A stretch of 61,637 nt of DNA, filler included. It is 7 parts of 7 records of this genome, joined end to end, with 100 filler letters (N's around TTAATTAATTAA, not from the genome) between each part and the next. Parts side by side here need not be neighbours in the genome. Positions count along the whole stretch, not along the records: positions 5,740 to 28,558 come from SRR31156797_15519; 6 more parts are not named here. One strand, 5' to 3'. Positions 1-60,773 of the stretch are shown here, piece by piece. Every line of letters begins with the position of its first letter. Positions within the stretch are counted from its first letter, which is position 1. The notes beneath the pieces were generated by a model. That model was given only the letters and a program-made list of their open reading frames with translations, did no database searches and was not told the origin of the DNA. A program made the position numbers and the translations under genes.

Positions 1-759
1 AGGGGTTTTAAGTTCATGCATAATATTTCGTAAAAAAAGATTTCTTGATTCATTAAGTTGTCTGATCTCTGTAATGGCATTGTTAAATTCATTTGATACC
101 TCACTGATCTCATCTTTTCCATTACAAGATGTATCTATTTTGAGATCACCTTTAGAAAACTTGATAATATTTTGTTTGAGTCTTTGTAATGGTTGTAGTT
201 TCTTTATCAAAAATAGATAAAAGACTATAAATGTGATATTAAATAAAATAGTAAGTAAGATAAGATATTGGGTTCTATCTGAGATCTTTACTGTATCTTT
301 TATAAGTAGAGTCTCAAAATGGTCATTTTTATAAAAATATTTATATCCCTCATATTCATAAAGTTCCCATGCTATATCTGATGATAGTAGTTTTCCATCT
401 TTTTTGATTGTATTATAAGGTATTTGTGAGAGTTGTAGGTCGTATTTTTTAAGATATTCATCAAGTTTTTTAGAATCTTTTTGAAATATAAGAGGTTTAG
501 GTGGTTTTGGACGCACTTTTAACTCTTCTTTTTTTAAAGGTGGCATAGGTGGTTTATCTTTAAAAGGTTGAGTAGGAATAGGGTGTTCTTTTTCAAACTC
601 TTTATGGATAATAAAAAGGGTTTTCATATATTTATTGATCAAAAGATCAATTTGCTGCTGTTTTGTAATGTTGTATCCTATATAGATAATACCATGAACT
701 GTAACAATTAAAATGATAAAAAAAACAGTGATTCTAAAAAAAATAGAATCTTTATTGAT
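1..759 (-). CDS. Membrane sensor histidine kinase (HAMP + HisKA), 3'-truncated at the window edge; start codon uncertain
   Basis: Own translation of the minus strand: two hydrophobic segments, a Pro-rich periplasmic part, a HAMP-like segment (LQPLQRLK...KDEISEVSNEFN) and an H-box (FLRNIMHELKTP) running off position 1. It lies directly downstream of the response regulator. Confidence 0.85.
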   Translation of the reverse strand, partial: MNKDSIFFRITVFFIILIVTVHGIIYIGYNITKQQQIDLLINKYMKTLFIIHKEFEKEHPIPTQPFKDKPPMPPLKKEELKVRPKPPKPLIFQKDSKKLDEYLKKYDLQLSQIPYNTIKKDGKLLSSDIAWELYEYEGYKYFYKNDHFETLLIKDTVKISDRTQYLILLTILFNITFIVFYLFLIKKLQPLQRLKQNIIKFSKGDLKIDTSCNGKDEISEVSNEFNNAITEIRQLNESRNLFLRNIMHELKTP

Positions 760-1426
760 TGATAAGTTTATAACCCACTCCTCTAATTGAAAGTAAAAAT
801 TCTGGTTTTTTTGAAGAAACCTCGATCTTTTGTCTGATTCGTCCAATGAGAACATCAATACTTTTCATATTACTATCATATTTAATAGAATCAACATTTA
901 AAAGGAGCTCCTCTCTTGAAACTGGGTAACCACTTTTTTTAATTAAATAAGTTAAAATATGAAACTCTGCATTTGTTAGATCAAGGAGTTCCTCTTCTTT
1001 GTATATTTCCATCCTTTTCTCATCATAAGAGAAGATTCTTTTATTTTCTAGTGGTTCTATTTGAGGATGGTTTCTTTTCATTAAAGCATTGATCCGTAAA
1101 ACTAATTCTTGAGTATCATAAGGCTTGGGGATATAATCATCTGCCCCATGACTATAACAGATCGTTTTATCCTCTATATCACTTCTTGCTGTTGAGATAA
1201 TAATAGGAATATCTGATTTTCCTCGTATGATCTTACATACTTCAGTTCCATCAAGCCCAGGTAAGGAGAGATCTAAAATGACTAGATCATATTTTTCTAC
1301 ACTTAAACTACTTATACCAAGTTCTGGACAATCAAAATTTGTGATCTTTATATCATGTTGTTCTAAATACTCACTTAAAAGCTCAGCAAGTTCTATATCA
1401 TCTTCTATCATTAATATTTTTATCAT
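752..1426 (-). CDS. OmpR-family response regulator
   Basis: REC domain (LMIEDD, DLSLPGLDG, KPY) followed by a winged helix ending IRGVGYKL. Confidence 0.95.
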   Translation of the reverse strand: MIKILMIEDDIELAELLSEYLEQHDIKITNFDCPELGISSLSVEKYDLVILDLSLPGLDGTEVCKIIRGKSDIPIIISTARSDIEDKTICYSHGADDYIPKPYDTQELVLRINALMKRNHPQIEPLENKRIFSYDEKRMEIYKEEELLDLTNAEFHILTYLIKKSGYPVSREELLLNVDSIKYDSNMKSIDVLIGRIRQKIEVSSKKPEFLLSIRGVGYKLINQ

Positions 1427-1502
1427 ATAACCTCTTTAGAGTGATTTTAAATATTATATTAAAAAAAAGTAAATAGGAAGTATCAAAGAGGGATTTTTAT
1501 AA

Positions 1503-2423
1503 CTAATACCCTAGGGTTTTATCTATTTGATGTAATATATTCATATTATTTTTAGCTCTTTTATAGTTCTCTAAAACTTGTTTGATTACACTATTTGGGT
1601 CAGTCAATGAAGCACAATGTGGAGTGATAAAGATTTTTTCATGTTTCCAAAAAGGATGCTCTTTTTGTAGTGGTTCATTTTGAAAAACATCTAAGATAGC
1701 TCCATTTAAGATTTTATCTTTAAGAGCTTCTAAGAGTTCTTTTTCTACTAAATGCTCTCCTCGTCCCACATTGATCAAATAGCTATGAATATTGAGTTTT
1801 TGAAAAAGTTTAAGATTTAATATCCCTTTTGTATCGGAAGTAAGAGGAAGAAGATTGATAAGAATATCAACATCTTTTAAAAAACTTGGGAGCTCTGTAA
1901 AGCTTTGTATACCGTGAATATTTTTTTTGCTTCTTGCATACCCTTTTACAAGAAAGCCCATATCAGAAAACTTTGTAGCAGAAAAGCTTCCAAGTTGTCC
2001 TAGTCCCATGATACCTATTGTAGTATTATGTATATCTTTGCTCACTTTTGGATCCCATATGGTATTTTTTTGTTGGGTAATATAATGATATTGATTGGTT
2101 ACAATATTCATCACTATGCTTAAAAGATATTCCCACATAGAATTTACCAGTTTAGTATCAACTATCTTTGCAATAGGGATATGAGAAGGAAGGGTTTTAT
2201 TGTTTAAAATATGATCAACTCCTGCACCCATAGAGTTGATAGCTTTGAGGTTTGGAAACTCTTGAAAGTTTATAGTTTGTGCAGACCAAACAAGGGCAAA
2301 GGTGATCTTTTGTTTATCTTGTACTTTAGGATATATTTGAATATCTAAAGAACTATCAGCTTTTTTTAGAGCCTCTATCCAAGGCTCTATATCTTTATTG
2401 TCAGTAACTAAAAGGATACCCAT
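1503..2423 (-). CDS. ghrA: D-2-hydroxyacid dehydrogenase (glyoxylate/hydroxypyruvate reductase A-like)
   Basis: GAGVDH, GIMGLGQLG Rossmann motif, INVGRG, LDVFxxEPL, ITPH. Confidence 0.85.
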   Translation of the reverse strand: MGILLVTDNKDIEPWIEALKKADSSLDIQIYPKVQDKQKITFALVWSAQTINFQEFPNLKAINSMGAGVDHILNNKTLPSHIPIAKIVDTKLVNSMWEYLLSIVMNIVTNQYHYITQQKNTIWDPKVSKDIHNTTIGIMGLGQLGSFSATKFSDMGFLVKGYARSKKNIHGIQSFTELPSFLKDVDILINLLPLTSDTKGILNLKLFQKLNIHSYLINVGRGEHLVEKELLEALKDKILNGAILDVFQNEPLQKEHPFWKHEKIFITPHCASLTDPNSVIKQVLENYKRAKNNMNILHQIDKTLGY

Positions 2424-2430
2424 AGAGTTA

Positions 2431-4245
2431 TTATACTATTCCCCAGTATTTTATAAATTGATCATCCACATCGATGATCTCTCTTTTTTTAAGATCTTCA
2501 ACTACTGATTTTGTACAAACAACATCATCTGGCCATCTTCTTTTAAAATTATCGTGAGAGTTTTTATTGGTTGCATCGATTGCTATGGTATGACCTTCAA
2601 GATAGATATCTCTATTACTATCAATATTGTTTACTACTCTCCATACTAGCATATATGGATTGTCTAGTTGATTATTTTTTTCATCTACGATAACTAGTAT
2701 TTTAATATGTGAAAAGAGTGGTTTAAGTTCATCTATAAGGTATTTTTGAGATCTAAGCTTTTCTATACTTATTACAACTATAGGGTTTTTCGTATCTATA
2801 AAATATTGTTTTAAGCCTTTTATCTCAGATGAGACCTCTTTCATCCCTGAGAGTAGGGTTGTATCATCAAGGATTTCTATTCCAAGCTCTTTTATCTCAT
2901 CTCCCGTACAATCAAGTCCAAGTTTTCCACCCATAGCAAACTTTGGTGAACTATGATCAAGAGCATCAACTACCCCTTTTGTTATAAGGATATCTTCACT
3001 ATCGATTCTATTTAAAATATACGGGATGATCTCTTCAGAGTCAAGTTCAGGTGCATCCTCTCCTACAAAGATAGCATGTTTTACAAAGCTCATTTGTCCT
3101 ACACCCCAAAAAGCGTGCATCACTTGTTGTGCATGTCCTGGGTAGAGTGTTTTTATTTTTGCTAAGATCAGATTATGAAATACTCCATTTTCAGGCATAT
3201 AATAATCAATGAGATCAGGTGCAGTGGTTTTTAAAAGTGGTAAAAATATCCGTTCAGTTGCATGACCCATATATTTATCTTCTAAAAGAGGTTTTCCTAC
3301 AACTGTAGCTGCAAATACAGGATTTTTTTTACTAGTAATTGCTGTAACTTCTAAAAATGGATACTCCTCTTCTAGGGTATAATATCCTGTATGATCCCCA
3401 AAAGGTCCTTCAATTCTTAGCTTTGAGGTATCTACAAATCCCTCAATTACAAAGTCCACATCTTTTGGTACATAGATATCATTTGTGATAGATTTTACAA
3501 GCTCTGCATTTTTCTTTTTTACAAATCCATAAAGCATAAGCTCAAACACTCCAATTGGAAGTGGAGCTTGCCCACACCAGATATACATAGGATCTCCACC
3601 GATTCCAATAGATACAGGCATCTTTTTACCAGCTTTTTTATATTCATGGAAAAAATGGTTACTATCTTTGTGGATCTGCCAGTGCATTCCTAAAGTATGA
3701 TCATCATATACTTGTAATCTATACATTCCTACATTGTGCATTTTTCCATCAAGTGAAGTGGTATAGACCTGTCCCATAGTGATAAAAGGACCACCATCTT
3801 GCTCCCAAGTGGTAAGGATTGGAATCTCACTTAGTTTTGCTTCCTCACCTTTTTTGATTATAGCTTGACATTCCCCTTTACCACTTAAGCGCTTTGGAAA
3901 TACTGATTTTAAAGAGAAGAGGTTTTTAAACATTGAAAGTTTATCCATAAATCCACTTGGTGATTTCATCTTTAGAAGCTTTTCTATTTCAGCTCCTATC
4001 TCATCTCCATCACCTATAAAAAGCTTTACTGCTTCATCATTACAAAAAACATTCATTAAAACTGGGGTGTCAAATTTTTTATCTGTTTTTTTGTCAACTG
4101 GATTGGTAAAAAGAATAGCTTTACTTGTCTCTTTCTTTACTTCAATATAAGCAACATGAGGAATCTCTAAATAAATATCTAAAGGTTCATCGATCACTTT
4201 TAATAAATCATTTTGTTTGAGTTTATCTATTATTTCATTTTTCAA
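2431..4245 (-). CDS. UbiD-family decarboxylase (menaquinone/futalosine pathway type)
   Basis: NVGMYRLQ, EGPFGDHTGYY, DALDHS motifs; 604 aa with a C-terminal extension; TTG start. Confidence 0.9.
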   Translation of the reverse strand: MKNEIIDKLKQNDLLKVIDEPLDIYLEIPHVAYIEVKKETSKAILFTNPVDKKTDKKFDTPVLMNVFCNDEAVKLFIGDGDEIGAEIEKLLKMKSPSGFMDKLSMFKNLFSLKSVFPKRLSGKGECQAIIKKGEEAKLSEIPILTTWEQDGGPFITMGQVYTTSLDGKMHNVGMYRLQVYDDHTLGMHWQIHKDSNHFFHEYKKAGKKMPVSIGIGGDPMYIWCGQAPLPIGVFELMLYGFVKKKNAELVKSITNDIYVPKDVDFVIEGFVDTSKLRIEGPFGDHTGYYTLEEEYPFLEVTAITSKKNPVFAATVVGKPLLEDKYMGHATERIFLPLLKTTAPDLIDYYMPENGVFHNLILAKIKTLYPGHAQQVMHAFWGVGQMSFVKHAIFVGEDAPELDSEEIIPYILNRIDSEDILITKGVVDALDHSSPKFAMGGKLGLDCTGDEIKELGIEILDDTTLLSGMKEVSSEIKGLKQYFIDTKNPIVVISIEKLRSQKYLIDELKPLFSHIKILVIVDEKNNQLDNPYMLVWRVVNNIDSNRDIYLEGHTIAIDATNKNSHDNFKRRWPDDVVCTKSVVEDLKKREIIDVDDQFIKYWGIV

Positions 4246-4369
4246 AGGGTATGTCCTTTTTGGTGTAGTTTAAAAATTATATCGAAAAATATATAATTGT
4301 GTAGATGATATATGTTTGTTGAACCTTTTTAGAGCAAATTAAATCCACACTAAATTTCTTTATAACTCA

Positions 4370-5639
4370 CTACGAACATAAGCTTTCTAAAATAATCAGT
4401 GCATAAGGATGGTTTTTATCTAAAATATGTTGTTTTACAAGTGTAAATAATTGAAGTTTATCTTTATCTAGTTGAGTTGGGTTAATTTGATCAATAAGTA
4501 TTTCAAGCTCTTCAAAATCATCTTCTAAGAGTTTTGAGTGGAGCTTTGAGAAAAGGTGTTGATTTTGATTTAAAAAACTATTTAAAGAGTTGAGAAGGTT
4601 TTCAAAATTTATAGGTTTATTAAGGTGGGCATTCATCCCTATCTTTTTACTTTTTTCAATATCTTCTTTCATAGCATTTGCACTTAAAGCAATAATAGGA
4701 ATTTTTTTGTCCAATTCTCTTATAATACTTGTCGCTTCATATCCGCTCATGATCGGCATCTGTATATCCATCAGTATTAAGTCGTATTTGCTTGGAGAGT
4801 TTTTATATAAATCTACTGCTTCTTGCCCATTTGAGGCGATATCAATAGCTATTTTTGTAGGTTCTAGAACCCCTTTAATAATCTCTTGATTGGTATTATT
4901 ATCTTCTGCAAGTAATATAGTATAGTTTTCAAAGTTATTTTGTGTTGATGTTGTAAGATGAGCTTGCTTAGACTTATTTGTATTTACCGTATTGTTTCGT
5001 TGAAGATCAAGTTCAAAAAAGAAACTACTCCCTTTGTTGTAAGTACTTTCAACCCATATTTTCCCATTCATCAGTTCAACTAGTTGTTTAGAGATACTGA
5101 GTCCTAGTCCTGTACCCCCATATTTTCTAGTGGTACTCCCATCTGCTTGAGAAAAAGATTCAAAGAGTTTTGATATTTGCTTTTCACTAAGTCCAATCCC
5201 TGTATCTTTTACTTCAAATAATACCTGTGATGAAGAGGTTTGTTTTATAAATAGAGTGATAAAACCATTTTCTGTGAATTTTACAGCATTACTAAGAAGA
5301 TTGGTAAGTATTTGGGCAATTCTTAATTTATCTCCATAATAAGAGTTTCCAAGAGATGGATCATACTTTATAGAAGTGATTAAGCCTTTTTGTTTTGCTT
5401 TAAGTTGTATCATTTCAAAAACTTCATTGATAAGTTCAAAAAGATCAAAGTCTATTTTTTCTATATGTAATTTACCAGCTTCAATTTTACTGAAATCTAA
5501 GATATCATTGAGGATACCTAAAAGGTTTTTGGCACTCGTATCAATCTGTTTAATATATCGTTGCTGTTTCTCATTGAGTGGGGTTTGTAATGCTAAATGG
5601 GACATCCCAATGATACCATTCATTGGAGTTCGTATCTCA
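4370..5639 (-). CDS. Hybrid sensor histidine kinase/receiver, 5'-truncated by the contig end
   Basis: EIRTPMNGI, NLLSNAVKFT, DTGIG, GGTGLGL, then a REC domain (LAEDN, LMDIQMP, KP). Confidence 0.93.
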
Positions 5640-5739
5640 NNNNNNNNNNNNNNNNNNNNNNNNNNNNNNNNNNNNNNNNNNNNTTAATTAATTAANNNNN
5701 NNNNNNNNNNNNNNNNNNNNNNNNNNNNNNNNNNNNNNN
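5640..5739. other. Artificial contig spacer
   Basis: N44-TTAATTAATTAA-N44; base composition changes abruptly across it. Confidence 0.98.
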
Positions 5740-5821
5740 AAAGCGGCCCAGCACCTGATCGGCGTGGTTGATGTGATCGAGAAGCAGGTGAGAGTATTAC
5801 CTTAAAACCGCTATTCTCTGA

Positions 5822-7579
5822 TCAGTTTGCTGGGCCGCCGGTAAGGGGTCGGCTGATTTCCGTCATGCGAACCAGAAATGGACCGGACGGCAGAAAATCC
5901 ACCAGGCGCAGGTCTCGCCGTTCTTTACCCGTGGAATCGATGAAAACAACCGTGGGGACTCCTCTGATGTCATACTGCTTCAGCAATCTTTCGTAAACGG
6001 GATTACCCTTGCGCGTCAGATCCACTTTCACCAGGATAAAATCCTTTTTAGACCGTTTGACGATTTCCGGGTCGCGGAAGGTGATTTCATCCAACTCACG
6101 GCAGGGGGCACACCAGGCAGCGGAAAAATCGATAATTACCGGTTTCTTTTGGACAACCGCCTCTTTGAGCAACCGGTCCGAATAGGGGTGCCAAAAGGCA
6201 CCGGGCCCGGCCATGAGCAGGGAACCGATCAGAAACGTTGCGGTTAACATTCCCACAATACCGGCAATCGTTTTCATCCAGCCAAAGGCTTTAAAATTGG
6301 CCTGAGAACGGTCAATCCAGCCCAGGTGCAGACCAGCCCCCAGGGCCACGGCCGCCAGGACAACATTACCCATCGATTGGGACATCACCGGACGAATGAA
6401 GTAAGCCGCCATACCCACCAGCACCCACCCCATGAGCTTACGCACCCACACCATCCACTCGCCGCTGCGAGGCAGCCTGTCCAGCTTTCCGGAAAACAGT
6501 GCCAGCACGAACAGGGGCAGCCCCAGGCCCACGCTGAGGGAGAAAAACACCAGAAATCCCAGATAGGGATTTCCCATGCCGGCTACCCAGGTGAGCAGCC
6601 CCAGTACGAATGGGCCGATGCAGGGCGCTGCCACCACCCCCAAGGTGATCCCCATGAAAACACTGCCGAAATAGCCGGTGTAGGATTTGGAAGCCGCCTG
6701 AGTCAGCCCTTGGGGCAGTTTGAACTCCCAGAATCCAAACATGCTGGTGGCAAATGCCAGCAGAATGAGCGCTACCGCTGACAGCACAAAGGGGTTCTGG
6801 AGCATGGCCCCCATGAGCCCACCGGTAAAAGCGGCGACCACCCCCAGGCTGGAATTGGTCAGGGCCAGCCCGCCCACATAACACAGGCCATGGGCGAAGG
6901 TTTCTCCTTTTCCCTTGGAACTGCGACCGCCAAAGTAGGAGACAGTAATGGGAATCAGGGGGTAAACACAAGGGGTCAGGTTTAGCGCCATGCCGCCCAG
7001 AAAAATGCCCAGAAGGGTCCAGAGCATGGCCCAGCCCGCAAGGGAACCATACTCCTTTTCCGGCGCAGTCACCGGAGCCGGTTGATGTGATGCGGTTTCA
7101 AAAGGATGCCCCTCCGCTTTCCAGGTGGGGAACCCCATGGGATCACGGTAAACATTCGTATAGCCAAGTTTTACGGCCACCCGGGCCGCCGAGTCGCTGC
7201 GGACTCATGCCAGCCCCGCTCAGTAAAATACAATGAAACGATTTTTGTCAGGTCCGAGGAGTTTTTCCATTGCATCCTTTTTCTTCCACCGCGATAACCA
7301 GGTGGGCTCCATGGGAAAGTTCACCGCCCCTTTCATGTGCCCGGTACGATACTCCCACTCCTGGCGGGTATCTACGATGAACGTGTCATTAGGTTTCTTC
7401 CGGTACTGTTCCCACAGCTTCCCGGTGTCGATCAGGCGATATCCGCCTTTTTCAGCTTCGGCCAGAACGTCTTCATGGGTTGCCGTTTTCAGTACGACAG
7501 GACGATTCTGAAACCATAAGGCATAAACCGCTATACCCACTGCCAAAACAGCCAAAATGGTCGTTCTTGTTCTCTGCAT
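5822..7579 (-). CDS. Predicted selenoprotein: rhodanese (UxxxxU)-DsbD/CcdA transmembrane domain-thioredoxin (WCAPC) fusion, with two in-frame TGA codons
   Basis: ORFs 7220-7618 and 5822-7180 share one frame, reading RFIVFY-TGA-AGLA-TGA-VRSDSAARVAVKLGYTNVYRDPMGFPTW, a complete rhodanese fold. It continues with LNLTPCVYP, AAPCIGP and WCAPC. ATG 7579 has a GAGGA RBS. Confidence 0.85.
7173..7219 (-). promoter_or_regulatory. Two candidate bacterial SECIS hairpins downstream of the in-frame UGAs
   Basis: Hairpin A: GAGTC/GACTC, loop CGCAGC, 18 nt after the first UGA, with lower stem GGGCTG/CGGCCC. Hairpin B: GCGGCC/GGCCGT, loop CGGGT, 21 nt after the second UGA. Folded by eye. Confidence 0.55.
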
Positions 7580-7650
7580 TGGAAATCCTCTGTTTGAAGA
7601 AATATGTTCGACAGCCACATCTCAGAAAAATGAGATATAAAAATAAATAC

Positions 7651-7690
7651 ATAAATAAATATTTATACGCTATTATGTACGATGTGTCAA
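7651..7690 (-). promoter_or_regulatory. Sigma70-type promoter of the rhodanese-DsbD gene with an overlapping AT-rich palindrome
   Basis: TTGACA (7690-7685), 17 nt, TATAAA (7667-7662); ATAAATA-AA-TATTTAT at 7651-7666. Confidence 0.6.
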
Positions 7691-7828
7691 GGTAGAAATC
7701 CCCCTTCTGGACGTTAACATATGCCGACAGGGAACAGGAGGAATGCCCCGGTGTTTCCAATGTGCCACCGTTTAAGGGCTTTGGCAATTAATACTTAAAC
7801 AGCTGCTTCTTTGCTTTTTACTTTTGTC

Positions 7829-7859
7829 TTGACATGGGTGACCAGGTGGTCAACAATAT
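7829..7859 (+). promoter_or_regulatory. Putative promoter and operator of the ABC operon
   Basis: TTGACA at 7829-7834 followed by the palindrome TGACCA-GG-TGGTCA at 7839-7852. Confidence 0.45.
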
Positions 7860-7915
7860 CCGGTATGGTTAAAATTGATAAATTTTTTCTTTAAAGAAAT
7901 GATGGGGGAATCGTA

Positions 7916-8953
7916 ATGGGGCAACCGAATATTAAACGTCCTTTAGGGTTGTTGGTGTTAATGGTGCTTTTAATCTGTTGGAGCGCTACGTCCACCGTGG
8001 CAGCGGAAAAGCTTCGGGTCGGGGCTCTCAGACTGACGTCATCTGCGCCACTCTTTATTGCCGTTGAGAAAGGGTATTTCGCCGATGAAGGGTTGGATGT
8101 GGAACTTAAATTCATGAAGTCGGCCCAGCCCGTGGCCATGGCCCTGGCTTCGGGGGATGTTGACGTGGGGGCGACAGGATTGACCGCGGGCCTTTACAAT
8201 GCGGCGGCAAACGGCCTGAAGGTCAGTATCGTGGCGGATAAGGGCCGTGTCTGGCCGGGGTACAGACTGGTGGGGCTCATGGTGAGCAATGACGCCTGGG
8301 GGAAGGGCCTCGGGAGCCTTTCGGATTTCAAAGGAAAGCGGGTGGGCATCACCCAGATGGGATCCACCTTTCATTACATGCTTGGGAATATCCTGAGCAA
8401 AAACCACATGGACCTTAAAGATGTGAAACCAACCCCCTTGGGCGGCGTCAAAAGTATGATGGATGCGGTGTCCGCCAATCGGATCGAAACGGCTTTTATG
8501 GTGCAGCCTTTCTGTACGGTGATGGAAAAGAAAAAGCTGGGGCACGTGATGCTGTGGGCCGGCGATGAGATGCGTTACCAGATCGCGGCCATCTTTCTTT
8601 CCGGAAAAATGGCTGAAAATGAGGCACTGAGCGTGAAATTCCTGCGGGCCTACATTCGGGCCTGCCGGTTCTATTACGACAACTGCCTGACAAAAAAGGA
8701 TGGGGTTTTGGTGAAAGGGCCTGAGTTCAATGAGGTTATCGGCTATATTGCCAAATACACGTCCCGGAAACCGGCCCTGATCGCATTGGGGCTCAATTAC
8801 AATGACCGCGACGGCAGGCTCTTTGCAGAAGACATTCAGCGACAGATCGATTGGTATCATGATCACAAAATGGTTGGAAAAAGACTGGATGCTCGGAAAA
8901 TCGTGAACATGAAGCTGTGGCAAAAGGCCCTTGACAGCCTTGACCGAAAGTGA
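7916..8953 (+). CDS. NitT/TauT (SsuA-like) ABC transporter substrate-binding protein
   Basis: Signal peptide; PLFIAVEKGYFADEGLDVEL and KGKRVG..GST motifs. Confidence 0.9.
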   Translation: MGQPNIKRPLGLLVLMVLLICWSATSTVAAEKLRVGALRLTSSAPLFIAVEKGYFADEGLDVELKFMKSAQPVAMALASGDVDVGATGLTAGLYNAAANGLKVSIVADKGRVWPGYRLVGLMVSNDAWGKGLGSLSDFKGKRVGITQMGSTFHYMLGNILSKNHMDLKDVKPTPLGGVKSMMDAVSANRIETAFMVQPFCTVMEKKKLGHVMLWAGDEMRYQIAAIFLSGKMAENEALSVKFLRAYIRACRFYYDNCLTKKDGVLVKGPEFNEVIGYIAKYTSRKPALIALGLNYNDRDGRLFAEDIQRQIDWYHDHKMVGKRLDARKIVNMKLWQKALDSLDRK

Positions 8954-9729
8954 TGAGAGCTGTCGTCAACAACATCTGCAAAAGTTTTGAAAACCCGGAC
9001 GGAACGGTTTTTGAGGCCCTCCGGGGGATTAATTTGACCATCAGCCAGGGGGAGTTCGTGGCGGTGGTGGGCCGGTCCGGATGCGGCAAATCCACCCTGC
9101 TCAATATGGTTGCCGGTCTTCTGCCCGCCACCGAAGGGGAGGTGGTGTTTGAAGACCTTTCGGCGGATGATCGACCGCTTACATCGGTGGTGTTCCAGGA
9201 CCTGGCCCTGTTTCCCTGGCGGAGCGTCAAAAAAAATATTACCTACGGTCTGGAAGAGCAGGGGGCCTCAAAAAAATCGAGGGATGACCGGGCCTCCCAA
9301 TTGATTGACCTGGTGGGGTTGACCGGGTTTGAAGAGCATTATCCGCACCAGTTGTCCGGGGGCATGAAACAGCGGGCCGCCATTGCCCGGGCCCTGGCCG
9401 TGAACCCTGAACTGTTGCTCATGGATGAGCCCTTTTCCGCCCTGGACGCCCAGATCCGCATGGATATGCAGGTGGAACTCTCCCGCATATATGAGACCAC
9501 CGGTCAGAGTTTTCTCTATATCACCCATTATATTCCCGAGGCCGTATTCCTGGCGGACCGGGTGGTGATCATGGGGGGGCGGCCGGGCGAAATCGAATCC
9601 GTTGTTCCCATTGATCTGCCCCGGCCCCGTGAAGAAAAAGTGAAAGTGGACCCCCGTTTTGTCTCTTACCTTGAGCGGATCTGGAGCGAGGTTCGAAGAA
9701 AACCCGAGGCGTCCGGGGGGAATCAATGA
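8950..9729 (+). CDS. NitT/TauT ABC transporter ATP-binding protein
   Basis: GRSGCGKST, LSGGMKQR, LLLMDEPFSALD. Confidence 0.95.
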   Translation: MMRAVVNNICKSFENPDGTVFEALRGINLTISQGEFVAVVGRSGCGKSTLLNMVAGLLPATEGEVVFEDLSADDRPLTSVVFQDLALFPWRSVKKNITYGLEEQGASKKSRDDRASQLIDLVGLTGFEEHYPHQLSGGMKQRAAIARALAVNPELLLMDEPFSALDAQIRMDMQVELSRIYETTGQSFLYITHYIPEAVFLADRVVIMGGRPGEIESVVPIDLPRPREEKVKVDPRFVSYLERIWSEVRRKPEASGGNQ

Positions 9730-10520
9730 CCCCGCATCGAAAGAAGGTGAAAGACAAAACCGGTTTTCTGGTGCGGCGCAGGAACCCCTGTGTGAGCTGG
9801 GTGTCGGTGATTGTCCTATTGGGGCTTTGGGAGATGGTGGGCCTTTTGGGGATCGTGCCGCCCCTTTTCCTGCCCCGGTTTTCGGCGGTGCTGGTTTCGG
9901 GATGGGATATGGTTTTAAGCGGCGAAATTTTCATTCATCTGGCCGCCAGTTTGTGGCGCATCGGGTGGGGGTTTTTCCTGGGCGCGGGTTTAGGAATTTT
10001 CACAGGCGTTGCGGTGGGGTATTTTCAGTTGGCCGACGATGCGGCCCGTCCCCTGGTGGCGGCCACCTATCCCATTCCGAAGATTGCCATCCTGCCGCTG
10101 TTGATTCTCTGGCTGGGCATCGGTGAAGGCTCCAAGGCGGCGGTGATCATGCTGGGGGTCTTTTTTCCGGTGGTGATCAACGTGCGGGCAGGTGTCAGGA
10201 ATGTGGACCCGTTGTTGATCAAGGCGGCCCTGTCGCTCGGTTCCGGTCCCTTCAACGTGATCCGAAAGGTCATTTTGCCCATGAGTCTCCCAATGATTTT
10301 CGCAGGCCTTAAGCTGGGCATCGGCATTGCACTGTTGTTGGTGGTGACCGCCGAAATGATTGCCGCGGACAAGGGGATCGGGTTCCTGATCCTTTCCTCC
10401 GCCGACCTCATGCAGACGACCCGTCTATTGTTCGGAATTATGGTCTTATCCGGCATGGGAATCTCCTTTGCATGGATCCTTGACAAGCTTGAACGTATTT
10501 GGATTCCATGGCGTGAATAA
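9726..10520 (+). CDS. NitT/TauT ABC transporter permease
   Basis: PIPKIAILPLLILWLGIGE, AEMIAADKGIG; multiple TM segments. Confidence 0.93.
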   Translation: MTPHRKKVKDKTGFLVRRRNPCVSWVSVIVLLGLWEMVGLLGIVPPLFLPRFSAVLVSGWDMVLSGEIFIHLAASLWRIGWGFFLGAGLGIFTGVAVGYFQLADDAARPLVAATYPIPKIAILPLLILWLGIGEGSKAAVIMLGVFFPVVINVRAGVRNVDPLLIKAALSLGSGPFNVIRKVILPMSLPMIFAGLKLGIGIALLLVVTAEMIAADKGIGFLILSSADLMQTTRLLFGIMVLSGMGISFAWILDKLERIWIPWRE

Positions 10521-11976: not shown

Positions 11977-12171
11977 TTATGATGTTATCTCCTTGACCCT
12001 CCCCACCTGCCCATCCATGAGTCGCACCTTGATGCCGTGAGGATGGGTGGGTGATCGGGTCAGGATGTCTTTTACGATCCCCACCGTTCGTTTGCCCGAG
12101 CGCTGGTCCGATTTCGTGACGATGGAAACCTGCGTCCCCCGCTTGATGTCTTTCCGTTTTTGGCCGTCCAC
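11977..12171 (-). CDS. YwbE-family small protein
   Basis: DQRSGKRTVGIVKDILT..PTHPHGIKVRLMDGQVGRVKEI signature. Confidence 0.85.
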   Translation of the reverse strand: MDGQKRKDIKRGTQVSIVTKSDQRSGKRTVGIVKDILTRSPTHPHGIKVRLMDGQVGRVKEITS

Positions 12172-13874
12172 TTTTTCTTAGCCCCCCGTTTTTTACCCGA
12201 TCTGCTCGATTTTTCGGCCTTTTTTTCCGCGTAGCCCATGGAAACCCTTTTGCCGTCCAGGCTGGCCCCTTTCATGGATTTCATTACATGGGGTGCCGAA
12301 TCGGCATCCACTTCCAGGAAAGAGAATTCTCTCATCACCTCTATTTTTCCAATTTGATTGGAGCGGATGCCGCTTTTGTCGCACACCAGTCGCGTGATGG
12401 CCCCCTTTTGAATATCGTCCAGTTGCCCCATATTGAGGAACAGCTTCCGGATCTGGGCCGGATTTTCCGGAAAACCCTTTGGGGATTTTTTTCCAAAGGA
12501 GGCTTTTTTTCCCATTGATCCCTTTTTCTGAAAGGCCTTCTTCCGAGGGGTGCGGGCATTGATATCCCCGGAATCCTTGTAGTAGTCCAGGAACCGGTTG
12601 AATTCGATGGATACGAAATGCTGGATTAATTCTTCTTTTGTAAGTGCCGCCAAGGTCTCGTATACGGGGGGAAGAAAGGCGGCGATTTCTTCATGATTGA
12701 CGTCGGTTGCCACCAGTCTTTCCACCATGCCGTAGAGTTGTTTTTCGCAGACGGCGCGACCGCTGGGGACTTTCTCGTGCTGAAACCGGACCCCGGTTAC
12801 CTTTTCCACATAGACCAGTTTTCGATTTTCACGGGTATTGATGAGAACAATTGAAGTTCCCGATTTTCCGGCCCTTGCGGTTCGGCCGCTTCGGTGTGTG
12901 TAGGCACCCGGTTCATCGGGAAGATTGTACTGAATCACATGGCTGATATCATCCACATCCAGCCCGCGTGCGGCAACATCCGTTGCCACGAGAATCTGCA
13001 GGCTTTTTTCCCTGAACCGGCGCATAACGTAATCCCGCTGGGTCTGTGACAACTCCCCGTGCAGGCTTTCCGCATTATAACCGTCTTTGATCAGCTTTTC
13101 AGCCACAGTTTGGGTTTCTTTCCGGGTTCTGCAGAAAACCAGACTGAAAATGTTGGGATGATAGTCGATGATCCGTTTGAGCGCCGGATAGCGGTCTTTT
13201 TCCATGACCACATATTTGAAGTGGGAGATGTTTCCGGCCCCGCTGTTTTTGCGTCCAATGGTGATTTCCACCTGGTCCTTCATGTAATTTTGGGAAATCC
13301 TGGCCACCGGCGCCGTCATGGTGGCGGAAAAAAGCCAGGTTCTTTTTTCGGAAGGGGTTTTGTCCAGGATTTCGTCCAGGTCTTCGAGGAAACCCATGGT
13401 GAGCATCTCATCGGCCTCATCGAGAACCACATAGTCGATGCCCTTCAGGTTGACGATGCCTCTGTGAATCAGATCCAGAAGCCTTCCCGGAGTGGCGGCT
13501 ATGATCTGGGCGCCGTTCTTGATTTGACGGATCTGGGGTTCCATGCCGGCGCCCCCGTAGACTGCGACGATTTTTGCGTTTTTCACGTACCGGCTGTAAC
13601 GGATCAAATCCTTTGAGATCTGCACGCACAGCTCCCGGGTGGGACACAGAATCAGGCCTTGAACCTGCGGTCTCGAAAAATCGATTAACTGGAGCAGGGG
13701 GAGGCCGTAGGCCGCTGTTTTTCCCGTTCCCGTCTGCGCCAGGCCCACCAGATCCCGGTTCCCTTCAATAATGGCGGGGATGGCCTTTTCCTGTATGGGT
13801 GTGGGTTCTTTAAACCCTAATTTATGAACTGCTCTGATGAGATGTGGCTCTAAGCCTAATGCTTCAAAATCCAT
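12072..13874 (-). CDS. DEAD-box RNA helicase with DbpA-type RNA-binding C-terminus (DeaD/CsdA-like)
   Basis: AQTGTGKT, PTREL, DEAD, SAT, HRSGRTAR; the 3' end may be misplaced (see findings). Confidence 0.95.
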   Translation of the reverse strand: MDFEALGLEPHLIRAVHKLGFKEPTPIQEKAIPAIIEGNRDLVGLAQTGTGKTAAYGLPLLQLIDFSRPQVQGLILCPTRELCVQISKDLIRYSRYVKNAKIVAVYGGAGMEPQIRQIKNGAQIIAATPGRLLDLIHRGIVNLKGIDYVVLDEADEMLTMGFLEDLDEILDKTPSEKRTWLFSATMTAPVARISQNYMKDQVEITIGRKNSGAGNISHFKYVVMEKDRYPALKRIIDYHPNIFSLVFCRTRKETQTVAEKLIKDGYNAESLHGELSQTQRDYVMRRFREKSLQILVATDVAARGLDVDDISHVIQYNLPDEPGAYTHRSGRTARAGKSGTSIVLINTRENRKLVYVEKVTGVRFQHEKVPSGRAVCEKQLYGMVERLVATDVNHEEIAAFLPPVYETLAALTKEELIQHFVSIEFNRFLDYYKDSGDINARTPRKKAFQKKGSMGKKASFGKKSPKGFPENPAQIRKLFLNMGQLDDIQKGAITRLVCDKSGIRSNQIGKIEVMREFSFLEVDADSAPHVMKSMKGASLDGKRVSMGYAEKKAEKSSRSGKKRGAKKKWTAKNGKTSSGGRRFPSSRNRTSARANERWGS

Positions 13875-14149
13875 ATAATATAACGCTCAACCTTTCTTGA
13901 ATCCGAATGGGCGCGACAAAAGCGCCATAGTCGGTTTGTTGATAAATTTAAAACTTTTTAAAATAGTACATATGTAATGAAAAATCAATAGTGATGTGGG
14001 GTTTAAGATAATTTAATATTAATTGTTTATAAATTTTAACGAGATGGCTGCTTTTTACTTCTTGACTCATCTCCCCAATTCTCATAAACTCCTAACCCTT
14101 ATAGAGATGTCTATTTTTTTAAGTCCCTTCCGAAAAGGAGATGAATGAG

Positions 14150-16111
14150 ATGCTGCAGAACAAGGTAGGATATGACATTATCCAGAAAATCGGTGGCGTA
14201 TCAACAATCGAAGAGGCCCTCGGGGTTTTTGAAAAGCACATGGATGCGGTCAATCTGGCCAAAATTCAGAAAATTAAAAACGCTGACGCCCTTCTGAAGA
14301 TCGCCAACGCCATTGTCATGTGTCGGCCCGATGATATCTTCGTGAATACCGGGTCGGATGAAGATGTGCAAAGGGTCAAACAGATGTCTCTGGAAAAGGG
14401 CGAAGAAGCCGTACTGGCCATGGAAGATCACACCATTCATTTTGATCTGGCGGCCGAGCAGGGTCGCATTATCGACCGAACATTTTATATTGCCAATCCG
14501 GATGAAGAGATCAGTTCACTGGCCAACCGGATGGATCGGGATGATGCGCTGAAAGATGTTGAGGAGAAGATGGGCGGCATCATGAAAGGCAAAACCATGG
14601 TGATCGGTTTTTACAGCCGCGGTCCCGTGGGTTCCCAGGGTTCCAATCCGGCCATTGAAGTGACCAGTTCTCTGTATGTGTCCCACAGTGCCGAACTCCT
14701 CTACCGGAATGTTTTTGATCACTTTGATGAAGAGGTGGAGCGGTTGGGCCATTTCTATGCCAATATTCACAGCGAAGGCCTTAATCGAACCGAAGATCTG
14801 CCCAATGCCCGGGTCTTTATGGACCGAAGTTTCCAGACCACCTACAGTATGAACTGTACCTATGCCGGCAATACCCTGTTGCTGAAAAAGGGGAATCACC
14901 GTTTTTCCGTGGACAAGGCCGTTTATACCAACCGGGGCAATGAGCTGGCTGAACATATGTTCATCACGGGCATCGATGGTCCCGACAAAAAGCGGGTGAC
15001 CTGGTTTGCGGGCGCCGCCCCCAGCGGTTGCGGCAAGACCACCACCGCAATGGCCGGTGCCCACTTCCTGGGTGATGACCTTGCCCAGATGTGGATTGAA
15101 GATGACGGCACCGTTCGGTCCATCAACCCGGAGGCGGGTATTTTCGGGATTGTGGAAGATGTGAACCGGGAAGGGGATCCGCTTCTGATGGATTGTCTGC
15201 GAGAGCCCGGTACCGAAGTGATCTGGTCAAACGTTTTGATCGATGATGAAAAGGTCCCCCACTGGGTGGGTAACGGTGGGGCACCACCCAAAAAAGGATT
15301 CAACTTCCAGGGTCCCTGGGAAGAGGGGATGGTGGATGAAAGCGGCAAGCCGGTGCCCATGAGCCACCCCAACTCCAGATGTACTCTGAAGGCAACGGCT
15401 CTGGCCAATTGCTCGGAGCGGTTTGAAGATCCGGCGGGCGCGAAGACCAGCGTCATTACCTACAGTGGCCGGGACAGCGACACCATGCCGCCGGTGTGGC
15501 TGGCGGTCACCCCGGATCATGGGGTGGTCATCGGCGCATCCATCGTATCAGCGGCCACGGCCACCGAAGTGGGTGCCACGGGCGTGAAGCGTGCTCCCTG
15601 GGCCAATGCACCCTTTATTCCGGGGGCCCTGGCGGACTATATGGATGCCCAGTTCAAGTTTTTCAACAGCCGGAAGATTGACGACAAGAAACGCCCCGTC
15701 CTCGCCGGTCTCAACTATTTTTTGACCCATGAAGCCAGGGGCGGGGAGTCCAAGAAATTGCTGGGGGAAAAGCGGGATGTGAAAGTATGGCTGGGCTGGC
15801 TGGAGAGACGCTTTCACGGTGATGTGGATGCCATAAAAACGCCCATCGGCCTTCTCCCCAAATATGATGATTTGAAAAACCTGTTTAAGGATATCATTGA
15901 TAAAGAATATCCCGAAGATTTGTATGTGAAGCAGTTTTCCCTCTATATCGACAACATCGTTGCCCGCTTGGATCTCCAGAAAGAAGCCTACGGAAAAGAG
16001 AGCAATGTTCCGGAACGTCTTTTTGAGATCCTGGACGAGCAAAGAGAGGGATTGGTTTCGCTCAGGGAAAAATTCGGTTCCGTTGTCACCCCTGCCCAAT
16101 TGATGACATAA
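14150..16111 (+). CDS. pckG: Phosphoenolpyruvate carboxykinase (GTP)
   Basis: AEHMFI, PSGCGKT, GDDLA, NPEAGIFG, HPNSR; RBS spacing favours ATG 14150 over 14141. Confidence 0.92.
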   Translation: MLQNKVGYDIIQKIGGVSTIEEALGVFEKHMDAVNLAKIQKIKNADALLKIANAIVMCRPDDIFVNTGSDEDVQRVKQMSLEKGEEAVLAMEDHTIHFDLAAEQGRIIDRTFYIANPDEEISSLANRMDRDDALKDVEEKMGGIMKGKTMVIGFYSRGPVGSQGSNPAIEVTSSLYVSHSAELLYRNVFDHFDEEVERLGHFYANIHSEGLNRTEDLPNARVFMDRSFQTTYSMNCTYAGNTLLLKKGNHRFSVDKAVYTNRGNELAEHMFITGIDGPDKKRVTWFAGAAPSGCGKTTTAMAGAHFLGDDLAQMWIEDDGTVRSINPEAGIFGIVEDVNREGDPLLMDCLREPGTEVIWSNVLIDDEKVPHWVGNGGAPPKKGFNFQGPWEEGMVDESGKPVPMSHPNSRCTLKATALANCSERFEDPAGAKTSVITYSGRDSDTMPPVWLAVTPDHGVVIGASIVSAATATEVGATGVKRAPWANAPFIPGALADYMDAQFKFFNSRKIDDKKRPVLAGLNYFLTHEARGGESKKLLGEKRDVKVWLGWLERRFHGDVDAIKTPIGLLPKYDDLKNLFKDIIDKEYPEDLYVKQFSLYIDNIVARLDLQKEAYGKESNVPERLFEILDEQREGLVSLREKFGSVVTPAQLMT

Positions 16112-28558: not shown

Positions 28559-28658
28559 NNNNNNNNNNNNNNNNNNNNNNNNNNNNNNNNNNNNNNNNNN
28601 NNTTAATTAATTAANNNNNNNNNNNNNNNNNNNNNNNNNNNNNNNNNNNNNNNNNNNN
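28559..28658. other. Artificial contig spacer
   Basis: N44-TTAATTAATTAA-N44. Confidence 0.98.
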
Positions 28659-35689: not shown

Positions 35690-35789
35690 NNNNNNNNNNN
35701 NNNNNNNNNNNNNNNNNNNNNNNNNNNNNNNNNTTAATTAATTAANNNNNNNNNNNNNNNNNNNNNNNNNNNNNNNNNNNNNNNNNNNN
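35690..35789. other. Artificial contig spacer
   Basis: N44-TTAATTAATTAA-N44. Confidence 0.98.
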
Positions 35790-41543: not shown

Positions 41544-41643
41544 NNNNNNNNNNNNNNNNNNNNNNNNNNNNNNNNNNNNNNNNNNNNTTAATTAATTAAN
41601 NNNNNNNNNNNNNNNNNNNNNNNNNNNNNNNNNNNNNNNNNNN
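41544..41643. other. Artificial contig spacer
   Basis: N44-TTAATTAATTAA-N44. Confidence 0.98.
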
Positions 41644-51283: not shown

Positions 51284-51383
51284 NNNNNNNNNNNNNNNNN
51301 NNNNNNNNNNNNNNNNNNNNNNNNNNNTTAATTAATTAANNNNNNNNNNNNNNNNNNNNNNNNNNNNNNNNNNNNNNNNNNNN
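51284..51383. other. Artificial contig spacer
   Basis: N44-TTAATTAATTAA-N44. Confidence 0.98.
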
Positions 51384-52570
51384 GTGACCACGTCGGCCGC
51401 GGTCGCCTGCCAGGCGACCATTTCCGGGCTGCATCCCGCGTGGGCTTCTTTTGCCGCACAAGAAGAAGTAGATACGCACCACCCCAGGGTTCCCAAAGAG
51501 CCGTCATGCACGGCGCCGACTGAAATAACGCTGGAAATACAGGCCGGCCAGCCCATGGAATCGCAATAACCGTCGTTGCCCGACGATACGAAAAGAGTCA
51601 TGCCGGCCGCAACAGCATTGTTCGCCGCCGCGGTCATGGCCGCCGTTGCTCCGTCGCATGTGCCAAAAAAGCGGCCCCCGCCGAAACTGGTGCTGATAAT
51701 CATGATCGGATTGGCCGGGTCGTCATTCTGGTGAGTTATGCACCATTCCCATCCCGCAATCATGGCGGAAGTAAGCGCACTGCCCGTACTGCCGTAAGAT
51801 ATCTTAACCGCGTAAAGCTTGGCGTTATAAGCGACTCCGCCTATATAATCGGACGAAGTCGGCAGGTTTCCGGCGGAAATGCCCGCGCAAGCCGTGCCGT
51901 GTCCGTTGTTGTCCATGGGATCGTTGTCGCTGTCGCCGGTGTCGTACCCGCCGATGACCTTGGCATTGGGGAAGCCTCCGCCTCCCAGGTTTGTATGATT
52001 GTAATCTATACCCGTATCGCAAATGGCAATGGACAAACCGGCCCCGTTGTTGGTATTGCGGACAGTCGTCGCATTCATCAGGGGGATGCCCTGGGCTGTA
52101 TGAGCGTGTAGAATTCTGTCTTCTTCAACCGCTAATACATCGGGATGGTTTATTAAATCCTGAAGACCCTGCAGCGTGGAAGAAGCGGAAAAGCCGAATA
52201 CGTATTTGAAACGTCGTTCCACTGCAACGCGTTTTTTATCCATGGCGTCTATGACCGCGTCCAGGGAATATTCGACTGTCTGCCTGAGTTGCTGCTTTTG
52301 GGAGTTGTCGCGAATGTCCGGTGTTTTAAAGTATTTTATCGGCCTGCGCAAGGTGACGATAACCCTGGCGGTCTCCTCGCCTGAAGAATAGGCGTCAAGA
52401 ATCGAATCCGGAGTCAGAATTTTCGAATTCGATTGCATATCCCGTATCATTTGCCTGTCGGCCGAGGTCAGGGTTGCGGCCCCGCCCGGGCCGGGAAAGG
52501 CAAATATGGACAGGGATATTAAAAAAATATATGAAAACAGTCTATTAGTTCCGGGGTTGCGTTTAGACAT
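51384..52570 (-). CDS. Secreted S8 (subtilisin-like) serine peptidase with propeptide, truncated by the contig end
   Basis: Signal peptide, ICDTGID, GHGTACAG, SSGN. Confidence 0.92.
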
Positions 52571-52917
52571 TTTGTAATTTCATACCTCTCCTGATGCTGT
52601 CATCTAGACATTCTAATGGATTTTTAGCGACATGTCAGCGTATATACTCAAAATCAGCCTAATAAATGCACCCGGATCACGATATATTCATAGATAACAA
52701 ACAATTAATGAAATCCATCCTTATAAAAAAAACCGAATAATGCGGCTGAATCCGGTGGCGGCGCCGGAGTAGAAGACAACCGGAAATCCGGGCTTAAACT
52801 TCGACTTATCAAGTGATACGCATGGGATTAAAGAATCGGTCCAACCGAGCGGCTCTCCAGGCATTACGACGCCTCGAGCGAAGTCGGACGTCGCGATCAA
52901 TATTTGTTTTAGTCCGG

Positions 52918-53763
52918 CTAATCTTCAAGACGGGGGTCCAGGGCGTCCCTTAGTCCTTCGCCGAGCAGGTTGTAGCCTAAAACCGTTACCAGGATGGCCA
53001 GGCCGGGATAAAGACTTAACCACCAGGCTATGGAAATTGTATCTTTTCCTTCTGTCAGAATATTTCCCCAGGAAGGAGTAGGCGGTTGCACACCGATTCC
53101 AAGAAAGCTGAGGGCGCTTTCAGTAAGTATGGCGCCGGCCACGCCCAAAGTGGCTGAAACAAGGACCGGGGCCAGGGCATTGGGTAAAATATGGACAAAT
53201 ATAATCCTCATATCGCTCGCGCCCATGGCAACGGCCGCTTGCACGAAATCCCTTTTCTTGAGGGTGAGAAATTCCGCCCTGACCAGCCTGGCCACGCCCA
53301 TCCAGCTTGTCAGGCCGATCACTATCATAATGTTCCAGATTGACGGCTCCAGAAAGGCGATTACAGCCAGGATAAGAAAAAACGCAGGGAAGCAGAGCAT
53401 CAGGTCCACAAAGCGCATGATCAAATTATCCGCCCAGCCTCCGTAATAACCGGCCAGTGAACCGAGCAGAATGCCGATGGTTGTTGATATACCCACGGCG
53501 ACAAAGCCGACTTTCAGGGACACGCCGGCGCCCCAGATCATTCGCGACAGGACGTCGCGTCCCAGGTTGTCCGTCCCGAATGGGTGTTCCTGCGAGGGAG
53601 GGGCCAAAATCAGGGTCAATTGCGGCGTGTTGGGATCGTAAGGCGCCAGTTGGGACGCAAAAATCGAAACGATGAACAAGGCCGCGACTATCAGGCCGCC
53701 TGCCAGGGCGGCCTTGTTTTCCAGCAAGGTTGTTTTTATTTCTCCGGGTTCGCGGGAAAACAT
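52918..53763 (-). CDS. Peptide ABC transporter permease (DppC/OppC-like)
   Basis: HPFGTDNLGRD, LSFLGIG..PP.PSWG, GEGLRDALDP. Confidence 0.95.
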   Translation of the reverse strand: MFSREPGEIKTTLLENKAALAGGLIVAALFIVSIFASQLAPYDPNTPQLTLILAPPSQEHPFGTDNLGRDVLSRMIWGAGVSLKVGFVAVGISTTIGILLGSLAGYYGGWADNLIMRFVDLMLCFPAFFLILAVIAFLEPSIWNIMIVIGLTSWMGVARLVRAEFLTLKKRDFVQAAVAMGASDMRIIFVHILPNALAPVLVSATLGVAGAILTESALSFLGIGVQPPTPSWGNILTEGKDTISIAWWLSLYPGLAILVTVLGYNLLGEGLRDALDPRLED

Positions 53764-54743: not shown

Positions 54744-54766
54744 TAAAGAAAAGACTCCGGACCTAA

Positions 54767-56401: not shown

Positions 56402-56490
56402 AAGTCGTTGTCCTTTCAACATGTTTAAATAGTGTCTGTCCAGAAATGAAAAGTTTTTTCCAAGTTCGAGGAGAGCGAGAATTTTAACCG

Positions 56491-56590
56491 NNNNNNNNNN
56501 NNNNNNNNNNNNNNNNNNNNNNNNNNNNNNNNNNTTAATTAATTAANNNNNNNNNNNNNNNNNNNNNNNNNNNNNNNNNNNNNNNNNNNN
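56491..56590. other. Artificial contig spacer
   Basis: N44-TTAATTAATTAA-N44. Confidence 0.98.
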
Positions 56591-57678: not shown

Positions 57679-57688
57679 AACAAGCCGA

Positions 57689-58303: not shown

Positions 58304-58345
58304 ATCCTGACTCCCTTTCTCTTCTTGGTTTCAATTCACGGGACA

Positions 58346-58374
58346 AGCCTACAAAAGGGGGGATTTTTTGTCAA
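58346..58374 (-). promoter_or_regulatory. Sigma70-type promoter of lpoB
   Basis: TTGACA, 17 nt, TAGGCT. Confidence 0.5.
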
Positions 58375-59155: not shown

Positions 59156-59214
59156 AAAAACGGAGGGATCCTCAAGGGGCGCTGTTTTAAATTCACGAGA
59201 GCGAATCTTTCACC

Positions 59215-60759: not shown

Positions 60760-60773
60760 GGCACCTCCTAAAA

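Follow-up and report, generated by a model that had tools for sequence, protein, structure and literature searches.

In this study, we analysed a stretch of DNA of 61,637 nucleotides (nt), hereafter the window, and found that positions 5822-7579 on its minus strand are quite probably a single gene, tsoB, coding for TsoB, a 585-residue selenoprotein in which a rhodanese domain with two selenocysteine (Sec) residues is fused to a DsbD-beta-type membrane domain and a DsbD-gamma-like thioredoxin domain. The evidence for this comes from a curated protein family, from the conservation of both in-frame UGA codons among relatives, and from the structure of the RNA that follows them. Around this gene we also set out a broader proposal, which is tentative and, taken as a whole, unlikely: the two Sec residues would be inserted by means of a tandem pair of small selenocysteine insertion sequence (SECIS) hairpins, with the second UGA inside the first hairpin, or by one hairpin serving both UGAs at the edge of the usual distance; the solitary tsoB would belong to a dispersed TsoR regulon; and the Se-Se rhodanese with its DsbD relay would be a periplasmic reductase of selenium, tellurium, arsenic or sulfane species.

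Standard open reading frame (ORF) calling divides the gene into two minus-strand ORFs, 7220-7618 and 5822-7180, which lie in one common frame. When TGA is read as Sec (U), the only internal stop codons of the 5822-7579 frame are TGA 7222-7220 and TGA 7207-7205, and the translation across the junction is IVFY-U-AGLA-U-VRSDSAARVAVKLGYTNVYRDPMGFPTW (also given as IVFY-U-AGLA-U-VRSDSAARVAVKLGY). Translation probably begins at ATG 7579-7577, with a GAGGA (7590-7586) six bases ahead of it; from there the coding sequence runs through 585 codons to a TGA stop at 5824-5822, and the two internal codons become residues 120 (UGA 1, 7220-7222) and 125 (UGA 2, 7205-7207). The product matches the NCBIfam model NF045694 (seleno_TsoB) over profile positions 2-571 of 572, with an E-value of 2.1e-299 and 993.5 bits against a cut-off of 805, and the UxxxxU motif with two Sec that marks TsoB is present as U120-AGLA-U125. 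A 2026 review (PMC13188914) lists TsoB as UxxxxU with two Sec, beside TsoA (LULAxC), TsoC (NEPxGxxU), TsoX and TsoY; the same source explains Tso as 'three selenoprotein operon', tsoA-tsoB-tsoC, and credits both the system and the protein to Haft and Tolstoy (2025). TsoB is thus a curated family, named from sequence in 2025, and the architecture predicted for this gene was already known.

Both UGAs are strongly conserved. A scan of relatives with one genome per species found 212, of which the best 80, at 59-91% protein identity, were kept; TGA stands at both positions in the same frame at 80 of these 80 loci, neither TAA nor TAG was seen at either site among them, and the loop reads FY-U-[AGS]GL[ATS]-U-[VA]RS throughout. 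In a separate sample of 401 genomes spread evenly over the phylum of the nearest relative, 30 matches above the TsoB cut-off were found in 26 genomes, every one with exactly two TGA codons. The protein database gave a different view: among the best 120 matches, 117 were C-terminal fragments of 397-467 residues, called 'DsbD' or 'CcdA' if named, and only three (P0011, P0015 and P0027) were full-length. Two of the three carry cysteine at both sites, FYC-TGQT-C in P0011 and FYC-AGPD-C in P0015. A TGA pair kept in frame at all 80 loci is, by sequence comparison, far beyond chance, and the alignment marks both UGAs as conserved Sec/Cys positions. As for the machinery of decoding, selA, selB, selD and tRNA-Sec exceeded their cut-offs in four of four genomes of relatives, including the carrier of a TsoB 91% identical to that of the window, and selD of these relatives itself carries one TGA; no tRNA gene was found in the window.

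These results bear on a first-pass annotation of the same DNA, which had read the two same-frame ORFs as one gene split by UGA-as-stop calling and had proposed an alignment of homologues as a check. The reading and its coordinates hold, and the alignment speaks for them, with the TGA pair and the frame kept at every locus and Cys/Cys in P0011 and P0015. Its suggestion that the architecture might be unrecognised has to be given up, the protein belonging to the curated NCBIfam family that appears in the review's list.

The domains of TsoB were delimited by profile, hydropathy and structure comparison (all on the minus strand). A hydrophobic segment at residues 6-24 (7508-7564), with R3 and R5 ahead of it, was seen in the hydropathy scan and may be a signal peptide or a membrane anchor. 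It is followed by the rhodanese domain, residues 57-156 (7112-7411; PF00581, 53.9 bits against a cut-off of 22.2), which also matches PDB sequences and is modelled by AlphaFold2 (AF2) with a predicted local distance difference test (pLDDT) of about 75-92. The DsbD-beta-type membrane domain of about eight helices (6200-7045; PF02683, DsbD_TM, 147.5 bits) contains Cys204 in a TPC motif (6968-6970) and Cys320 in an APC motif (6620-6622); the hydropathy scan flags six of the helices directly, and the number eight was read from the sequence together with its match to DsbD. The C-terminal thioredoxin-like, DsbD-gamma-type domain (5936-6193; Pfam Thioredoxin_7, Thioredoxin_2 and Thioredoxin) bears WCAPC at residues 489-493 (6101-6115). 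Cys204, Cys320, Cys490 and Cys493 are invariant in a 33-sequence alignment, and both Sec positions are at least 90% conserved in it. The AF2 model built on this alignment has a mean pLDDT of 68.4 and a predicted template modelling score (pTM) of 0.45, with fair confidence in the rhodanese and thioredoxin domains. Searching the PDB with Foldseek gave as best matches DsbD-gamma (1uc7_A, E 7.3e-07, TM-score 0.80 on the target) together with rhodanese-like proteins, 6mxv_A among them.

The FY-U120 of TsoB aligns with FY-Cys, the catalytic residue of the solved rhodaneses 6mxv, 2hhg and 3d1p. Relative to these the active-site loop has an insertion of two residues, and U125 lies inside it, where ordinary rhodaneses have no cysteine; in the family's own Cys-type homologues this position is cysteine. 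The first-pass annotation had placed both stops at cysteines expected in a rhodanese, which is right for UGA 1, the catalytic position, and wrong for UGA 2, which falls in the loop insertion. Its other statements on the protein are borne out: the TPC, APC and WCAPC motifs are present in domains that Pfam assigns to rhodanese, DsbD_TM and thioredoxin types, the N-terminus has the character of a signal or anchor, and by Pfam, by the NF001419 profile (positions 163-572) and by Foldseek the rhodanese takes the place of DsbD-alpha ahead of the beta and gamma parts. The extracytoplasmic position that it gave the rhodanese is likewise favoured by the pattern of one plus eight hydrophobic segments and the N-terminal Arg residues. 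In DsbD, the alpha and gamma domains face outwards. In TsoB, the N-terminal segment would anchor the protein and the eight beta-type helices would span the membrane, with one Cys each in the first and the fourth; with the N-terminus inside, the rhodanese and the C-terminal WCAPC domain would therefore both face outwards, into the periplasm.

The DsbD relay runs from thioredoxin to the beta domain, then to gamma and finally to alpha. From the domain order and this analogy we infer an electron relay within TsoB, the wire made of one protein that the first-pass annotation had proposed as leading to a Se-based site of sulfur transfer or reduction. A cytoplasmic thiol or selenol donor, thioredoxin or, where it is encoded, TsoC, would reduce the beta pair Cys204/Cys320; the beta pair would reduce the CxxC of the gamma domain (WCAPC), and this in turn the Sec120-Sec125 selenenylselenide of the rhodanese loop. 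On the outer side of the membrane, Sec120 at the catalytic position might then attack an oxidised species of sulfur, selenium or a metalloid, forming an adduct for Sec125 to resolve. TsoC is a small selenoprotein that has no signal sequence in the copies examined and gives a faint glutaredoxin-like match (E 0.073); that it is the dedicated cytoplasmic electron donor is a speculation for which it is a candidate.

The RNA behind the UGAs was analysed in a gap-free alignment of 66 nt from each of 82 gene copies, whose 81 distinct sequences were used for the energy and codon tests. Over the ten codons after UGA 2 the share of the most frequent codon is 0.63-1.0, a sign of strong synonymous constraint, and in the flanking variable codons 5-8 and 20-35 it is 0.34-0.76, with one outlier of 0.89 at a poorly conserved position. 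The serine at codon 12 is always AGY and that at codon 14 always UCN, and aspartate is GAC in 81 of 81. Two hairpins lie in this region, both on the minus strand. Hairpin 1 (GAGUC, loop CGCAGC, GACUC; 7191-7206) holds the G and A of UGA 2 in its 5' arm, and its loop starts 18 nt after UGA 1; in the alignment 97.5% of its cells are paired and 10 are not, and a single compensatory change is seen. Hairpin 2 (GCGGCC, loop CGGGU, GGCCGU; 7173-7189) has a stem of 6 base pairs (bp), with the loop beginning 21 nt past UGA 2 and 36 nt past UGA 1. In this hairpin 99.4% of cells are paired. Compensatory changes affect two pairs, and all four columns involved fall on third positions of codons; the counts are 63 GC, 12 AU and 1 CG at pair 39-51, and 77 CG and 4 UA at pair 42-48. 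The energy of hairpin 2 is -9.5 kcal/mol.

The bacterial SECIS model, that of bSECISearch as summarised in section 5 of the review (PMC13188914), has a loop of 3-9 nt, a stem of 4-16 bp, a G in the first two loop positions, a distance of 16-37 nt from the UGA and a minimum free energy of -7.5 kcal/mol or lower. Hairpin 2 lies within all of these limits for both UGAs and is the best SECIS candidate; hairpin 1 agrees in shape and spacing and fails in energy. The two-hairpin fold is lower in energy than a nested alternative in 71 of the 81 distinct sequences. That nested fold, the minimum-energy structure of the single sequence, was rejected as unsupported, its outer pairs being broken in 18-68 of the 81 sequences, and the window sequence folded alone gave no signal (z-score -0.34).

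The surroundings of tsoB in the 80 loci were classed by motif. In 48 of them tsoA stands upstream and tsoC downstream, 21 have only tsoC nearby and 3 only tsoA; the remaining 8 have neither, some of them with short flanks. NCBIfam confirms TsoA, TsoC and the ArsR/SmtB-type regulator TsoR (NF045707) in example loci. Neighbouring genes were also tallied at 19 of the 80 loci, hand-picked among those with full flanks, as ORFs of at least 100 residues under translation table 11, so that selenoprotein genes are split or missed in these counts. Upstream, TsoR accounted for 13 of 96 ORFs and thioredoxin reductase for 3 of 96; downstream, a VTT/DedA-family membrane protein following tsoC accounted for 8 of 104 by Pfam, and the NCBIfam tally of downstream neighbours at these loci showed no recurrent named family. 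The nearest relative (locus L001) has the order tsoB, a C_GCAxxG_C_C protein, an ArsM/AhpD double selenoprotein, tsoR, tsoA and tsoC.

The tsoB of the window stands otherwise. Its contig (5740-28558) is one of seven, joined by six spacers of N44-TTAATTAATTAA-N44 at 5640-5739, 28559-28658, 35690-35789, 41544-41643, 51284-51383 and 56491-56590. The G+C content is about 0.24-0.36 at 1-5639 and 28659-51283 and about 0.45-0.58 at 5740-28558 and 51384-61637; the record probably mixes two organisms, and neighbours across contig joints are therefore meaningless. Upstream of tsoB, on the opposite strand, is a NitT/TauT-type ATP-binding cassette (ABC) transporter, and beyond it come sulfate adenylyltransferase and housekeeping genes. 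The transporter (7916-10520, plus strand: binding protein, ATPase and permease) is divergent from tsoB, an adjacency not present in L001, and bears a weak, below-cut-off similarity to SaoX/SaoA/SaoP of the Sec-assisted organometallic system. Downstream, 16 bases past the tsoB stop, lies the 3' end of a convergent plus-strand gene (5740-5805) that is cut by the contig end; its presence shows that tsoB has no tsoC behind it here. Within the window, then, tsoB is not in a tsoA-tsoB-tsoC operon and tsoR is not adjacent; searching the window by tblastn with the two other neighbour proteins of L001 gave no match.

A comparison by blastn of the window with L001 showed homology over exactly tsoB and 120 nt upstream (window 7699-5822), at 90% identity. 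The conserved 5' region (7580-7699, minus strand) contains TTGACA at 7690-7685, a 17-nt spacer, TATAAA at 7667-7662, an AT-rich stretch and the GAGGA already mentioned as ribosome-binding site. L001 has two copies of a nearly identical promoter element about 60 nt in length, one ahead of tsoB and the other ahead of tsoR-tsoA-tsoC (1635-1656 and 5778-5799); the exact TTGACA-17-TATAAA pattern was found once in the window and is limited to the window and L001. A search of 9-mers in the upstream regions of the 80 loci for a common promoter or operator returned only tsoA coding sequence and its SECIS region. Judged by its sequence, the tsoB of the window is a putatively monocistronic gene with a putative promoter of its own, and since this promoter resembles the one before tsoR-tsoA-tsoC in L001, the solitary gene is probably under the control of an ArsR/SmtB-type TsoR encoded elsewhere in the genome.

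Several observations on the wider family were made along the way. One of the 80 loci holds two tsoB copies; in L074, tsoA-tsoB-tsoC is present as a tandem pair (about 7700-9900 and about 12080-14300) with a spacing of about 4.4 kb, and the Sec regions of the two copies are almost the same. Free-standing, anchored rhodaneses with a length of some 160 residues, FY-U-AGLA-U-VRS and both TGAs occur at L081 (G055:C23), L082 (G400:C53) and L083 (G376:C26), in genomes that also encode full-length TsoB, and a lipoprotein-like rhodanese close to L083 bears the extended loop of TsoB type in a Cys form, FYC-GFTK-C-TRS. At L008, L023, L027, L047 and L048, TsoB matches by tblastn extend over about 2040-2090 nt against about 1750, which hints at an insertion or an N-terminal extension. 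The match at G363:C14:444866-446519 is in two overlapping pieces (profile 4-291 with two TGA, 278-554 with one), and this copy may be frameshifted or broken. For TsoA, a weak C-terminal winged-helix match falls just short (HTH_24, 21.5 bits against 21.9). Nucleotides after the UGA of tsoA are conserved at the DNA level within its coding region, AGGTGTCGA being present at 51 of the 80 loci, which suggests that tsoA has a SECIS of its own.

Other explanations concern both the reading of the UGAs and their decoding. If the UGAs were real stops, the locus would hold two genes, a 132-residue anchored rhodanese fragment and a 452-residue CcdA/thioredoxin protein, or a pseudogene. Standard ORF calling does yield exactly those two ORFs, the database is filled with the corresponding 'DsbD' and 'CcdA' pieces, and free-standing anchored rhodaneses exist, though these too contain both TGAs. 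However, the frame and the TGA pair are kept at all 80 loci down to 59% identity, without TAA or TAG at either site, full-length Cys/Cys homologues exist, the SECIS-like hairpin covaries, the curated model NF045694 covers both halves, and the rhodanese would terminate exactly at its own catalytic residue. We therefore rejected this explanation, which is extremely improbable. With the UGAs taken as Sec codons, the question is how many elements serve them. Hairpin 2 might be a single SECIS for both; hairpin 1 would then be a mere spacer, its sequence kept constant by codon context, by contacts with SelB or the ribosome, or by similar demands. Otherwise each UGA would have its own SECIS, the two lying in tandem. 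The distances of hairpin 2 from UGA 2 and UGA 1 are both within the model range, the energy threshold is reached by hairpin 2 in 72 of the 81 distinct sequences and by hairpin 1 in none, and RNAalifold predicts hairpin 2 and not hairpin 1. Against a single element, hairpin 1 is paired almost throughout, the position-specific serine codons and the constant GAC fit its pairing, its loop stands at the usual spacing from UGA 1, and, at 36 nt, hairpin 2 is almost out of range for UGA 1. Taking both sides together, we place the single SECIS close to an even call, if slightly on the lower side.

With respect to function, sulfane sulfur is suggested as the substrate by the catalytic position of the rhodanese and by the background of sulfate reducers; metalloids or selenium are suggested by the metalloregulator type of TsoR, by the DedA-type gene and by the ArsM-type neighbour of one locus. 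The latter signs can be taken further: the U-x4-U loop would be a soft-metal or metalloid site, where species of arsenic, selenium, tellurium or mercury are bound, reduced or passed on, and not mainly a sulfane-sulfur site, the DsbD part would keep the selenols reduced, and the Tso system would be a metalloid-handling module under a metalloregulator. In its favour, TsoR is of ArsR/SmtB type (NF045707, 159.1 bits in L001 against a cut-off of 115) and recurs upstream, in L001 the interval from tsoB to tsoR encodes an arsenite-methyltransferase/AhpD double selenoprotein (NF041537, 512.5 bits against 510), and the VTT/DedA-family protein recurs after tsoC. DedA proteins have been linked with selenite, and the rhodanese fold is common to Acr2-type arsenate reductases and to Cdc25, the latter giving weak matches here. 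On the other hand, ArsR/SmtB regulators include non-metal sensors, and TsoR has a match to the model for BigR at 1.7e-11; a single locus showed the ArsM-type neighbour; none of the 25 families listed in the neighbourhood tallies is an arsenic, mercury or tellurite resistance gene; and the loop is unlike C-X5-R, its Arg being at +7 from Sec120. We consider a metalloid site somewhat unlikely on this balance.

Returning to the main reading of tsoB, with its decoding, mechanism and control, a number of points weigh against it. Hairpin 1 is weak alone, at -4.8 kcal/mol, with 0 of 81 distinct sequences reaching -7.5 kcal/mol. In the homologue P0027 the two Sec are replaced by Gly and Arg, so the redox loop is not universally kept; this protein, of 587 residues and from one contig, reads FYG-HGLA-R-VRS, with Gly and Arg codons each one base away from TGA; either a sequence error or a loss of redox function may account for it. 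AF2 performs poorly in the membrane part, and the model is uninformative on domain contacts. We infer the Sec machinery of the source organism from the genomes of its relatives. Neither the LULAxC and NEPxGxxU motifs nor tblastn with TsoR, TsoA and TsoC of L001 revealed tsoA, tsoC or tsoR in the window. The promoter was read by eye, and a consensus promoter scan omits it because its rule demands T at the last -10 position. Finally, no experiment on TsoB was found in the literature searched, Haft and Tolstoy (2025) lying outside that search, and the BSepDB paper does not mention rhodanese, Tso or DsbD.

TsoB is an unusual protein: few others in bacteria carry two Sec within a single active-site loop, and its mRNA has to decode two UGAs 15 nt apart; by analogy with DsbD, it would also join a transmembrane electron relay to a Se-Se site. 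The family is widely mis-annotated, the gene in the window being one instance, and its C-terminal pieces are labelled 'DsbD' or 'CcdA' because UGA is taken as a stop. A cultured carrier of tsoB exists, Desulfoprunum benzoelyticum DSM 28570 (locus L031), so that decoding and function are directly testable.

Compared with known systems, the product of the window agrees with the TsoB family (NF045694) in its full-length score above the curated cut-off, in U-x4-U with two Sec and in an identical domain order, but differs in setting, the family being named for the tsoA-tsoB-tsoC operon and this tsoB being solitary, with a divergent ABC transporter on one side and a convergent gene on the other. With DsbD (NF001419) it shares the beta membrane domain with two Cys of the essential type and the gamma CxxC domain, the best fold match of its thioredoxin domain being DsbD-gamma itself; yet it scores 240.9 against a cut-off of 330 and lacks the immunoglobulin-like alpha domain, the two-Sec rhodanese domain taking that N-terminal periplasmic place. 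Single-domain rhodaneses of PspE/GlpE type (6mxv, 2hhg, 3d1p) have the same fold and FY-[C/U] at the catalytic position, whereas the TsoB loop is two residues longer and includes a second Sec. The rhodanese selenoprotein forms 1-4, as they are described in PMC13188914, have one Sec each (UxxS, UxxG or CxU) and TsoB two. In relation to the bacterial SECIS model, as far as the review's summary gives it, hairpin 2 lies within every listed limit; what sets the tsoB transcript apart from that model is that two UGAs 15 nt apart share one region, with UGA 2 inside the 5' arm of hairpin 1.

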